In this document: piece after piece, positions 13,346 through 17,503 of the stretch
How the letters are laid out: every line of letters starts with the position of its first letter
How positions within the stretch are numbered: position 1 is the stretch's first letter
Virus record (IMG/VR): IMGVR_UViG_2627853771_000003
Length of the DNA: 48,551 nucleotides
Strand: one strand, 5' to 3'
Origin: a virus
Lineage: Duplodnaviria; Heunggongvirae; Uroviricota; Caudoviricetes
Notes under the pieces: model-generated
The model's input: only the letters and a program-made list of their open reading frames with translations
Databases searched by the model: none
What the model was told of the DNA's origin: nothing
Made by a program: the position numbers and the translations under genes

Positions 13346-13870
13346 TTATTGTTTAACCCATAATAGTTCATTGACATTGAATCCCAACTTTTGAGCGGTA
13401 CGCACATAGTCTGCTTTTACATTATCTGGAATAGTTTGGGTCCTTGCCAGAATCCATAGGTATTCTCTGTTCGGACCACTGACAAGAGCATACTTATACT
13501 CATCATCCAGTTTGATTACATTATAGCCACCATAGAAGGGGCCAAAAAACGAAACTTTCAACGCTGCAGTTTTAGTATCTCCAGTAAAGTATGCTTTACC
13601 TTCGCTCTCGCTCCATTTGTTTTTCGTTGGATCGTATCCACGGTTAAGTACGCGAATCCCTCCGTCGTTCCGTTTTTCATAAGTAGCGCTGACCTGTTCC
13701 AGACCACGTTCGAACCAGTTCTCGAGGCGAGCTATTTCATACCATTTTCCGAGGTAGCGGTTGGCGTCAAAATTTGTAATCGGCTGCACACCTTTAGGTG
13801 GTGTCGGGGCCTTACATGCTATAAGAGTGAAAGAGAGTGCAATGCCAGTCAACACAGGCCATAACTTCAT
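13346..13870 (-). CDS. Blc-like bacterial lipocalin, outer-membrane lipoprotein (moron)
   Basis: Signal peptide with lipobox LIAC; lipocalin motifs YLGKWYEIARLENWFERG and SFFGPFYGGYNVI; opposite strand to the phage late genes. Confidence 0.85.
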   Translation of the reverse strand: MKLWPVLTGIALSFTLIACKAPTPPKGVQPITNFDANRYLGKWYEIARLENWFERGLEQVSATYEKRNDGGIRVLNRGYDPTKNKWSESEGKAYFTGDTKTAALKVSFFGPFYGGYNVIKLDDEYKYALVSGPNREYLWILARTQTIPDNVKADYVRTAQKLGFNVNELLWVKQ

Positions 13871-14062
13871 AATAAATCCTGTACTTTTGATAGTTGAGAG
13901 TAAGTATGAAAGATAGATGAGTACGACCGATCACTTAAAGAACTTTCCTACTATATTAGGAATAGTCAATAACAGAAAAATTGTCAGTGATGAAGCCAGA
14001 AAGGCAATTTAGTCCGTGCACTACAAAGTTTATGTGTTAATGAATTAGTCAAGGGGGAGGAA

Positions 14063-14896
14063 ATGATAAAAAAACCTGTGATTGGGATCAGCGGTTGTTT
14101 GGGCGGTTCTGCTGTTCGTTTTGATGGTGGTCACAAAAGAGATGACTTTTTAATGGACAAATTAGTGGAATGGGTAACATTCAGACCAGTATGTCCGGAA
14201 ATGGCTATAGGGCTGCCAGTTCCGCGTCCTGCTCTACGACTTGTGCGCTCGAAGCAAGGAAATATACGGATGTGTTTCAGCCACGACCAGAATGAGGATG
14301 TGACAGAGAGAATGACAGAGTTTAGTCGTTCTTATATGGACAAATTAAAGGATGTATCGGGGTTTGTGGTTTGTGCTAAATCTCCCAGCTGTGGCATGGA
14401 GCGCGTGCGTGTCTATGATGAAAATGGTAATCGAGGTCGTAAAGATGGAGTGGGACTATTTACGAGCACTTTGATGGAAAAGTTTTCCTGGCTACCGGTT
14501 GAAGAGGATGGGCGATTACATGATCCAGTGCTTCGTGAGAATTTTATTGAAAGAGTTTTTGCTTTGCATGAGCTCAATCACCTTTACAAGGAGAAATTAT
14601 CAAGAAGAGAGTTATTAGCTTTTCATAGTCGTTATAAGCTTCAGTTGTTGGCGCATAGCCAGGCAGGCTATAAAGATATGGGACCATTTGTGGCTGCAAT
14701 ACACGAGTGGGCGGACCTTGAATCATACTTTGAGGTGTATCGTGATAATCTGATGGCGATTCTCAGAAAACCAGCATCACGTAAAAATCACACGAATGTG
14801 CTGATGCATATACAGGGGTATTTTAGTAATTACTTAAGTACACGCCAGCGTAAAGAGTTGAGCGAGGTTATACTTAACTTGATCCTACCCACGTAA
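14063..14896 (+). pseudogene. DUF523 (TudS-like, three-Cys cluster) + DUF1722 fusion protein gene, 3' end interrupted by IS3
   Basis: N-terminus MIKKPVIGISGCLGG with Cys12/Cys44/Cys105. The frame enters IS3 at 14880 and stops after 5 foreign codons. Removing IS3 and one TSD copy restores a 47-codon continuation ending at 16283. Confidence 0.7.
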
Positions 14897-14909
14897 TATG
14901 GACACAGGC

Positions 14910-15776
14910 CTAAGCGAGGTTCTTGTTTTCAAATTGTTCCGGACTGAGGCCGCCACACCAACTGTGCCGCCGCCACCGATTGTAATCACATTCGATATAA
15001 TTAAACACCGTTGCCCGCATTATTTCCCGGCTGATAAAGTGTTCTCCATGGATACATTCCACTTTCAGCGAATGAAAGAAGCTTTCCACGCAGGCATTAT
15101 CGTAGCAGCAACCTTTTGCGCTCATACTTCCACGCAGATTATGCCGCTTCAGTTGCGCCTGATAATCTGCTGAACAGTACTGGCCTCCACGGTCCGTGTG
15201 AACGATAACGTTCCGGGGCCTCTTACGCCGCCACAGCGCCATCTGCAGGGCATCGCAGGCCAGTTGCGCCGTCATGCGTGGCGACATTGACCAGCCAATA
15301 ACGGCACGTGACCACAGGTCAATGACCACTGCCAGATACAGCCAGCCTTCATCTGTACGTAAGTACGTGATGTCTCCTGCCCACTTCTGGTTCGGGCCAC
15401 TGGCGTAAAAATCCTGCTCCAACAGATTTTCTGACACAGGCAGGCCGTGTGCGCGGTAGCTGACCGGGCTGAACTTCCGGGAGGCCTTTGCCCTCAGCCC
15501 CTGACGGCGCAGGCTTGCCGCCACGGTTTTTACGTTAAAGGGGTAACCCTGAGCACGCAGTTCATCCGTCAGGCGTGGGGCACCGTAACGCTGTTTTGAC
15601 CGGGTAAAAGCCGCGAGGACAACGCTGTCGCAGTGTTGGCGGAACTGCTGACGCGTGCTTATCCTTGTCCGCCGCTGACACCACGTATACCAGCCGCTGC
15701 GGGCCACCCGGAGCACGCGGCACATTGCTTTGATGCTGAACTCAGCCTGATGTTTTTCAATAAAGACATACTTCAT
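14910..15776 (-). CDS. insF: IS3 transposase OrfB (InsF)
   Basis: 288-aa DDE integrase-core ORF inside IS3. Confidence 0.9.
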
Positions 15777-16081
15777 TTCAGGCGCTTCGCGAAGTATGTC
15801 GCGGCCTTTTGGAGGATAGCCAGCTCTTCATCCCGTTCTGCCAGCTGGCGTTTGAGACGTGCAATCTCGGTAGACATCTCCAGTTCACGTTCAGAAGACG
15901 TCTGCTGATTTTGCTGTTTACTGCGCCAGTTGTAGAGTTGTGATTCATACAGGCTGAGTTCACGGGCTGCGGCAGTAACACCGATGCGTTCAGCAAGCTT
16001 CAGGGCTTCACTGCGAAATTCAGGCGAATGCTGTTTACGGGGTTTTTTACTGGTTGATACTGTTTTTGTCATGTGAGTCAC
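15773..16081 (-). CDS. insE: IS3 OrfA (InsE), HTH/leucine-zipper protein
   Basis: 102-aa ORF overlapping orfB by 4 nt. Confidence 0.85.
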
Positions 16082-16137
16082 CTCTGACTGAGAGTTTACT
16101 CACTTAGCCGCGTGTCCACTATTGCTGGGTAAGATCA

Positions 16138-16283
16138 ACTATCGCTTTGGCACATTGCCTCTTCTTGCGCCGTTGACTCTGCTGAAGCATTATCTGGGTG
16201 AGTATCCTAATGATTACTTGCTTACACAGAATTACTTCGATCCCTATCCGGAAGAACTGGCTCTAAGACTGATGGTGAATTAA
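16138..16283 (+). pseudogene. 3' fragment of the DUF523/DUF1722 gene displaced by IS3
   Basis: In-frame continuation ...YRFGTLPLLAPLTLLKHYLGEYPNDYLLTQNYFDPYPEELALRLMVN* once IS3 is removed. Confidence 0.6.
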
Positions 16284-16689
16284 CTGTATGCGATATCATC
16301 TGAAAGTGATGAGTTCCTGTATGCAGGATATTTACAATCGTAAAAACTACGCTATGATGCTCATAGTGTCAGTTTTTATAAAAATCCTGTTCACGCTAAA
16401 GAAAACATTGAGATGCAATTTAATGTTGGTAAACATACCAGCCCCAAAAGATTTTATTCAATCTGTTTTTATATGAAGATATTTCAAGTGAATATAAAGA
16501 GCATATAATATTATTATTGCACGCAGCTATTATAATATAACAGATTAGTTTAATGATTTGTTTTTTGTGAGTTAAACACATGGTTTTATAGTTGTGATGC
16601 AATGAGATTTTCCTTATTGTTGAACTGGCGAATATTGATTTTCCACCTATACTTACCTGGTGTAACCCCAATGATATCAGGTGGATAAT

Positions 16690-17403
16690 ATGCCATACAT
16701 ATGTTCTATCATTTTGGTGTTGAACTCGTTTGGTGTCCGAATTGGTAAAGAAGATATTTTGTTTAAAAAAGGAAATGCTGTCCTCATTGAATACAATTTA
16801 AAAGATCTTTTTTCGTCAAATACAGATCATCTAATGATCGTAGATATTGAGGAGAAAACAGTTAATGATTTCTTTAAAAACTACACACTCTCACCTTTTT
16901 CTGTAAGAAGGTTTTATCCGTCATACTTGATAGTAGAATGTGAAGATTTTTCATTGTTAAGGAACTTGGTTGCATGCTTGAATTGTGATAGCAAAACCGT
17001 GGATGTAGTTAGAAATCAAATATCACTTGCATGTCTTGCTGTCTTATCTTCAGAGAAAATAGTGCAAAGTTTTTTGTTCGGAAGTCTTAATAGCTTAGGT
17101 TGTAAAGTTAAGGCTATTATTCACTCGGATATCTCAGCGTCATGGAGACTTTGTGATATATCTTCAAGATTATATATGAGCGAGAGTTTGTTAAAAAGAA
17201 AATTAAAAGACGAAGGATTATCGTTTAGTAAATTAATTCTTGAAGAACGAATGATGATGGCGCAAAGATTATTGATCTACAGTAACCATACTGTCGGCAA
17301 GGTGGCGGGAATATGCGGGTATGACAATGCATCATATTTTGTAAGTGTTTTTAGAGGATATTTTGGTGTGCCTCCGCACCAATATTTATCAAGATTTTCT
17401 TAG
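16690..17403 (+). CDS. AraC/XylS-family transcriptional regulator (AppY/GadX-like), AT-rich moron
   Basis: C-terminal AraC HTH (LLKRKLKDEGLSFSKLILEERMMMAQRLL...GYDNASYFVSVFRGYFGVPPHQY); very AT-rich gene and flanks; ATG at 16690 after GGTGGA (track start is a GTG at 16681). Confidence 0.8.
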   Translation: MPYICSIILVLNSFGVRIGKEDILFKKGNAVLIEYNLKDLFSSNTDHLMIVDIEEKTVNDFFKNYTLSPFSVRRFYPSYLIVECEDFSLLRNLVACLNCDSKTVDVVRNQISLACLAVLSSEKIVQSFLFGSLNSLGCKVKAIIHSDISASWRLCDISSRLYMSESLLKRKLKDEGLSFSKLILEERMMMAQRLLIYSNHTVGKVAGICGYDNASYFVSVFRGYFGVPPHQYLSRFS

Positions 17404-17471
17404 AAGATATGATGTGATGGCATTTTATAAAGTTATTTTTTGAAGTGTAAGATTATACGATATTTTTAGCT

Positions 17472-17503
17472 ACGCCAGAATAATTGCTGGCGTTTTTCTT
17501 TTT
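17472..17503 (+). terminator. rho-independent terminator after the AraC-family gene
   Basis: ACGCCAG-AATAATT-CTGGCGT hairpin followed by TTTTTCTTTTT. Confidence 0.55.

Follow-up and report, generated by a model that had tools for sequence, protein, structure and literature searches.

Here we describe a three-gene accessory cassette in a 48,551-nucleotide stretch of Caudoviricetes DNA (IMG/VR record IMGVR_UViG_2627853771_000003), referred to below as the window, along whose full length all positions are counted. The cassette occupies window positions 13174-17563 in a Qin-type lambdoid Escherichia coli prophage, with the gene for antiterminator Q on one side and the holin gene on the other. The open reading frame (ORF) map, together with domain searches, gives the order Q, lipocalin (minus strand), the TudS+DUF1722 fusion gene rudS (plus strand), an AraC-family regulator (plus strand), and holin. 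We consider it probable that these three genes form a widespread, two-unit accessory cassette that lambdoid coliphages carry in the leader of their late operon, and that the cassette is partly dead in this prophage through insertion of the insertion sequence (IS) IS3 into rudS. An initial annotation of this sequence had placed three non-phage genes between Q and the lysis cassette, and all three are recovered in those places by the ORF map and the domain searches. The features of the cassette and its borders are the following.

12813-13190, plus strand: antiterminator Q, QuuD-like (PF06530, Phage_antitermQ, Pfam E value 8e-51); the start at 12813 is that of the RefSeq homologue, and 12798 is an alternative start.
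13289-13312, plus strand: intrinsic-terminator-like hairpin and T-run directly after Q (-14.9 kcal/mol, z -3.8), conserved in phages 1H12 and TUM13867.
13346-13870, minus strand: Blc-subfamily lipocalin lipoprotein, 174 amino acids (Lipocalin_2, 7.5e-43), with transcription opposing the late operon.
13871-14062, no strand assigned: divergent lipocalin/rudS control region, conserved among phage variants.
14063-14879, plus strand: 5′ part of rudS, running through codon 272 into the first base of codon 273; it encodes the TudS [4Fe-4S] desulfidase domain plus roughly two-thirds of DUF1722 (Pfam, reconstruction).
14880-16137, minus strand: IS3, 1258 bp, with ends TGATCCTACCC...GGGTAAGATCA, orfA (15773-16081), orfB (14910-15776), and rve and HTH_Tnp_1 domains.
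16141-16283, plus strand: 3′ remnant of rudS, 143 nucleotides, from the remainder of codon 273 to codon 319 and the stop, with the last third of DUF1722 in frame.
16349-16369, plus strand: terminator-like hairpin downstream of rudS, flanked by an upstream A-tract and a downstream T-tract (-17.5 kcal/mol, z -7.2).
16690-17403, plus strand: AraC/XylS regulator of the GadW/AppY/YdeO clade, 237 amino acids, 31-33% GC (HTH_18, 3.1e-16; HTH_AraC, 6.1e-11).
17472-17493, plus strand: terminator-like hairpin closing the AraC unit inside the cassette (terminator scan and fold), conserved in 1H12 and IdasGreatGrand.
17594-17809, plus strand: class II P21-type holin (essD/essQ type), first gene of the lysis cassette (Phage_holin_2_1, 8.9e-34; RefSeq annotation of homologues).

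No part of the window falls outside the prophage: xis and exo are at its left and pinQ at its right, and phage genes border the cassette on both sides; the holin is followed by a YdfR-like gene, lysozyme, and Rz. By alignment, the window corresponds to the Qin-type prophage that strains REL606 and ET745 carry at ydfJ, and in both strains the whole element is present from integrase to pinQ. When compared with cassette-less prophages that carry a related Q or holin, homology to the Q genes ends at about 13172 (query 375-376) and homology to cassette-less genomes resumes at about 17563-17576 (query 414-427), and we take these breaks as the limits of the module. The segment between them has several properties of a moron: other prophages whose Q and holin genes are related either lack it or hold different cargo there, free phages carry it, it has terminators of its own (after rudS and araC), and its base composition deviates, with 30-35% GC in the araC region and about 38-45% in lipocalin and rudS, versus 47-56% in the neighboring Q and ydfU region. 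A comparable slot is found in DLP12 of E. coli K-12 (quuD - nmpC::IS5 - essD), where foreign genes likewise lie between Q and a class II holin, among them an opposite-strand outer-membrane protein gene (nmpC) that is also disrupted by an IS element (IS5). However, the cargo is a different one, and here three genes are arranged in two units with a terminator after each plus-strand gene. The comparison of this locus across related prophages, which the initial annotation had suggested, accordingly finds the same cassette in the ydfJ prophage of the REL606/ET745 type and nmpC::IS5 in the DLP12 slot. The stx genes of Stx phages are a further example of cargo located between Q and holin.

The cassette is common among E. 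coli genomes. After removal of the IS element, its 3.1-kb sequence has matches in 1155 of 5426 complete E. coli genomes (21%), 882 of which extend over at least 80% of its length, and most matches fall into two identity classes, one of at least 99% and one of 90-95%. Among sequenced phages, Jouyvirus 1H12, IdasGreatGrand, and a set of lambda phages from the infant gut show the same order, which recurs with the same strands, from Q through holin, in 72 of 80 IMG/VR loci; most of the remaining eight look cut off at a contig end. These genes are prophage cargo and not chromosomal flank, as the initial annotation had held. Between phage lineages, the ratio of nonsynonymous to synonymous divergence (dN/dS) is 0.07-0.25 for all three cargo genes versus 0.04-0.11 for Q, and all three are under purifying selection. 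In addition, the synonymous divergence (dS) of araC is far above that of its cassette neighbors (0.33-0.59 versus 0.05-0.29). Megablast similarity to divergent variants ends about 120 bp past rudS and some 30 bp beyond the hairpin that follows it (query 1941-1981, window position approximately 16401-16441), and a divergent araC is still present in a variant where the similarity ends there. As a side observation, two short contigs (L065 and L070) of a metagenome-assembled genome (MAG) labeled “Candidatus Nanosynbacter sp.” carry Q, lipocalin, rudS, araC, and holin at 84-98% protein identity, and these contigs are almost certainly binning contaminants.

The second cassette gene had been read initially as a TudS-like/DUF1722 fusion clipped at its 3′ end by IS3. 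The fusion stands, with a clear ortholog among characterized RudS proteins, and the clipping turns out to be an insertion, since an in-frame 3′ remnant of the gene follows the element. The element displays the hallmarks of IS3, namely a length of about 1.26 kb, terminal inverted repeats starting with TGATC, orfA and orfB with a frameshift, and a 3-bp target duplication (ACT at 14877-14879 and 16138-16140), and it is 99.8-99.9% identical to copies annotated as IS3 in ET745 and REL606. Excising IS3 and one ACT in silico yields a 319-amino-acid RudS ORF. As it stands, rudS is interrupted after codon 272 of 319 and its DUF1722 match ends at profile position 78 of 117; the present ORF (14063-14896) encodes 277 amino acids, of which 272 are native residues followed by LILPT from IS3 and a stop at 14896. 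The exact IS3 junction of the window occurs in no complete genome of the collection.

Domain searches recover the RudS architecture, with PF04463 (2-thiour_desulf) at residues 7-149 (4.1e-40) followed by PF08349 (1.2e-22), and the restored protein fits the YbgA/DUF1722 model over residues 161-315. It is 91.9% identical to gp66 of Escherichia phage 1H12 (H3V29_gp66, RudS_vir) and 97.5% identical to the IdasGreatGrand homologue. RudS_vir displays the same TudS+DUF1722 layout, the same length of 319 amino acids, and cysteines at the same positions 12, 44, and 110, and its gene likewise lies between lipocalin and AraC genes downstream of Q. The cluster cysteines and catalytic residues are all present in the restored RudS (C12, C44, C110, E46, R55, S107, and S109), where the cysteines are those listed for RudS_vir and the Glu, Arg, and Ser residues were matched to mutated residues of RudS_KT by local sequence context. 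Judged by identity, layout, and these residues, the fusion gene of the window is the ortholog of the experimentally tested RudS_vir, which belongs to a family of tRNA 4-thiouridine (s4U) erasers.

Jamontas et al. (2024) reported that overexpressed RudS genes, including that of RudS_vir, reduce s4U in E. coli tRNA 4.7- to 26-fold, that Cys, Glu, Ser, and Arg mutations abolish the activity of RudS_KT, and that RudS_KT shortens the growth delay induced by ultraviolet A light (PMC11417400). In the same study, DUF1722 consists of two four-helix groups that were modelled onto the tRNA anticodon arm (PMC11417400). Unlike in RudS_vir, the window gene is cut by IS3 after codon 272, which separates the final 47 residues of DUF1722 from the rest. 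Because IS3 removes these residues from the tRNA-binding domain, a loss of RudS function is likely, and the 277-amino-acid product, which lacks the last third of that domain, is predicted to be most likely inactive. E. coli has been said to lack RudS homologues, and BL21(DE3) served as the host in those experiments (PMC11417400). Contrary to that statement, we find that many E. coli carry a prophage rudS and that the copy of the B lineage is disrupted: rudS is broken in E. coli B strains, in REL606 by an IS3 after nucleotide 147 (L001 20864-23084), and BL21(DE3) shows a match to the first approximately 1 kb of the cassette only (H63).

The initial annotation had also pointed to a Blc-like lipocalin lipoprotein on the opposite strand, which our searches bear out. 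Over residues 1-174 the protein scores 312.6 bits against the NCBIfam Blc subfamily model (NF007786; cutoff, 267), and it matches Blc crystal structures (PDB 3mbt, 8e-67). As read from the translation, it carries the lipobox LIA-C19 with Lys instead of Asp at position +2 (MKLWPVLTGIALSFTLIA-C19-K) and no inner-membrane retention signal, and it is probably an outer-membrane lipoprotein sorted by the Lol system that binds lipids as Blc does. Mathieu et al. (2020) screened 19 lambda-type phages of the infant gut for morons and reported blc as one in over half of them (PMC6969025), and the window lipocalin is 96% identical to the 1H12 copy counted there, with 96-97% identity to phage copies overall. 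This infant-gut moron and the chromosomal Blc of K-12 (b4149) share with our protein the Lipocalin_2 fold, the lipobox Cys, and an NCBIfam score at Blc level. However, K-12 Blc is only 58.6% identical to it, and the second lipocalin that adjoins rudS in Enterobacter and Citrobacter is nearer (68-80%). Given this closer relationship, the phage lipocalin and the rudS-linked chromosomal lipocalin probably form an orthologous group distinct from Blc. In the divergent control region between lipocalin and rudS, we identified an 18-bp near-palindrome, TTCCTACTA|TATTAGGAA, at 13945-13962, which is kept in phage variants and has no second copy in the window. As a candidate operator, it may serve some dimeric regulator.

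A scan for rudS orthologues, using one genome per species, recovered 62 non-E. coli loci at 66-76% identity, in Citrobacter, Enterobacter, Leclercia, Kluyvera, Klebsiella, Pectobacterium, and Dickeya. In most of these loci, a gene divergently upstream of rudS encodes a lipocalin with 68-80% identity to that of the phage. The Enterobacter layout is lipocalin (minus), a MerR/MlrA-like gene (plus), a transthyretin-like gene (plus), and rudS (plus); of 64 chromosomal loci, 43 have the MerR/MlrA-like gene and 38 the transthyretin-like one. In Citrobacter sedlakii, lipocalin and rudS are directly divergent neighbors amid housekeeping DNA. The chromosomal clusters of Enterobacter, Leclercia, and Citrobacter thus share the divergent lipocalin/rudS orientation with the phage. 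In contrast, the phage version is devoid of the MerR-like and transthyretin-like genes and has the AraC gene downstream instead, and its intergenic DNA cannot be aligned with theirs; no inherited operator could be traced in the comparison with the Citrobacter equivalents. From this conserved arrangement, it appears most likely that the phage captured a pre-existing lipocalin-rudS module from an Enterobacteriaceae chromosome. The word “lipocalin” is absent from the text of the RudS study, which is silent on this link (PMC11417400).

The third gene, preceded by a 400-bp AT-rich region (16284-16689), had been described initially as a very AT-rich AraC-family regulator of the AppY type, and this description holds at the level of the clade. 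The C terminus contains the double helix-turn-helix (HTH) typical of AraC proteins and matches the DNA-binding domain of GadX (3mkl, 4e-21). Alignments by BLASTP run end to end (residues ~1-232) with GadW (34% identity, 4e-45), AppY (30%, 2e-41), and YdeO (29%, 2e-32), and the N-terminal motif M-x-x-[VI]-C-S-[VI]-I is common to the regulator and these three proteins. It shares with AppY of DLP12, GadW, YdeO, and PatE/PsrB a similar size (237 versus 242-253 amino acids) and the character of an AT-rich prophage gene. However, identity to GadW, AppY, and YdeO of K-12 is limited to 29-34%, and on sequence grounds we place the regulator within the GadW/AppY/YdeO clade as an ortholog of none of these three. 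Its relatives are few, nearly all from E. coli (27 clusters), and almost confined to E. coli prophages. Among them is a 247-amino-acid protein with 47% identity (P0017/P0018) that adjoins paoABCD and that we take, from this position, as a candidate for PatE of OI-8 of enterohemorrhagic E. coli. A further homologue (P0026, 265 amino acids) was considered as YbcM of DLP12 and rejected, the alignment being limited to the HTH domain. Characterized members of the clade, prophage-borne ones among them, turn on the GAD (AR2) acid-resistance regulon of the host. AppY, PatE, and PsrB are described as prophage-borne activators of acid resistance through AR2/gadE (PMC10057817, PMC10877973). Such activators offer the best functional analogy for our regulator, which by that analogy may likewise act on acid resistance.

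On the plus strand, a hairpin with a T-run follows each of Q, rudS, and araC, which places three putative terminators ahead of the holin. This arrangement fits a location in the late leader. Across positions 12700-17900, Rfam at permissive E values and ARAGORN detected no RNA gene, the sole match being below threshold and lying on a terminator hairpin. We propose that unit 1 is the divergent lipocalin/rudS pair, which would have been acquired en bloc from an Enterobacteriaceae chromosome, and that unit 2 is the AT-rich AraC regulator with its own upstream region and terminator. In a lysogen, the lipocalin and the regulator would be expressed from promoters of their own and would act as lysogenic-conversion genes. 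Upon induction, Q-modified RNA polymerase would arrive at the holin only after passing all three terminators, and through this read-through rudS and araC would also be transcribed in the sense direction. An intact RudS, as a [4Fe-4S] desulfidase, would then use its TudS domain to turn 4-thiouridine at tRNA position 8 back into uridine, with DUF1722 gripping the anticodon arm.

Several of our results weigh against this interpretation. Matches to a sigma-70-like promoter are not enriched in the cassette region (15 versus 11.2 ± 3.0 in shuffled sequence), and alignment with DLP12 revealed neither a Q-dependent late promoter nor a Q-binding site, with scattered conserved blocks only (e.g., ATATAACAG). 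The late read-through past terminators is drawn from general knowledge of lambdoid phages. As for the regulator, it falls under every curated NCBIfam equivalog cutoff, the best score being that for YdeO (112.3 bits versus 348); that for GadX is 89.8 versus 500. Regarding the loss of RudS activity, the TudS domain and what are probably the equivalents of Ser243 and Arg244 of RudS_KT lie before the IS3 break. Finally, the cassette is a frequent target of insertion. In a small genome sample, at least 11 cassette sites carry independent IS insertions (in the window and in loci L001, L010, and L078-L085), with IS3 at seven or more sites (two inside lipocalin, three inside rudS, and two shortly after its end), IS1 at three, and IS911 at one. 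In addition, araC is frameshifted in two genomes, and about 9 of 40 evenly spaced cassette matches carry an IS or a deletion. As these frequent hits and frameshifts show, many lysogens can do without the cassette.

This pattern of insertion is what would be expected if the cassette were neutral or mildly costly baggage in an IS-permissive slot, hitchhiking with a successful Q/lysis module. Such a view would also agree with the decaying state of the window prophage itself, as well as with the slower growth after 3 h reported upon overexpression of RudS_KT (PMC11417400). We nevertheless regard it as unlikely, if deserving of some weight: the dN/dS values of all three genes reflect long-term purifying selection, and most copies are intact, those of infective phages included. 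A further objection, prompted by the chromosomal lipocalin-rudS pairs of Enterobacter, Citrobacter, Leclercia, and other genera, is that the three genes are chromosomal flank and that the prophage is split at this point. We consider this extremely improbable. The phage genes on both sides, the whole element at ydfJ in REL606 and ET745, the free phages that carry the cassette, and the uniform order on 72 of 80 viral contigs all argue for an uninterrupted prophage, and the pair in other genera points to the source from which the phage obtained it instead of to a split.

It is also conceivable that the AraC protein is the cassette's own switch, having replaced the MerR/MlrA-like regulator and acting on the lipocalin and rudS promoters (for example, through the palindrome at 13945-13962) and not on a host acid regulon. 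Phage lineages keep the three genes linked despite the stronger divergence of araC, the phage is without the MerR-like gene that accompanies most chromosomal pairs, and the palindrome is conserved in the divergent promoter region. However, the window holds no second copy of the palindrome, upstream of araC or elsewhere, and no convincing motif is common to the lipocalin/rudS and araC control regions. Moreover, all characterized clade members (GadW, AppY, YdeO, PatE, and PsrB) act on host genes, and the differing base composition suggests that araC was acquired separately. Taken together, we think a switch of this kind improbable and favor a two-unit cassette whose regulator may act on the host.

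A more speculative extension, to which we assign a low probability, would see the cassette as protection against sunlight. Here, rudS, being in sense orientation in the Q-dependent late leader, would be expressed along with the late genes once solar ultraviolet light induces the prophage. RudS would then erase s4U8 from host tRNA and so avert s4U8-C13 cross-links formed under near-ultraviolet light and the translation arrest caused by the stringent response, the co-inherited lipocalin would handle photo-oxidized membrane lipids, and the AraC protein would have replaced the MerR-type regulator of the chromosomal cluster. If this were true, late protein synthesis and burst size would be protected, the phage would edit the tRNA epitranscriptome of its host, and a functional link between lipocalin and tRNA thiolation would exist that is conserved in Enterobacteriaceae chromosomes.

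In itself, this is lambdoid cargo of a kind already described, and two of the three genes are in the literature. What we add is modest: the chromosomal origin of the lipocalin-rudS pair, its tight linkage to a regulator of the GadW/AppY clade, and the recurrent IS hits. Through this common cassette (21% of complete E. coli genomes), a phage would control an eraser of a tRNA modification together with an envelope lipoprotein and a stress-type regulator, and the response of lysogens to near-ultraviolet light and acid may be shaped by it. The natural intact and IS-disrupted rudS alleles could be ready material for experiments on physiology.

Outside the cassette, two further IS elements were found in the prophage.

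3487-4760, minus strand: IS3-family element with HTH_Tnp_1 and rve ORFs, near dicB/ydfD in the early region, the third IS of the prophage.
23246-25662 (within 22736-27375), minus strand: IS66-family element, tnpA/tnpB/tnpC, splitting the large terminase gene.

Profile positions 2-125 of the terminase ATPase lie before the IS66-family element and positions 124-247 after it. Since the terminase gene is split in this way, the prophage is defective and unable to package DNA. The REL606 prophage (L001 16698-17363) encodes the epoxyqueuosine reductase QueH, a second tRNA-modification gene, which is absent at the corresponding place in the window. The window in turn encodes a 345-amino-acid DUF5677 protein in an AT-rich segment (9519-10556; 35-42% GC), at coordinates corresponding to flxA-ydfV-relBE in ET745, and this gene looks like another piece of cargo.

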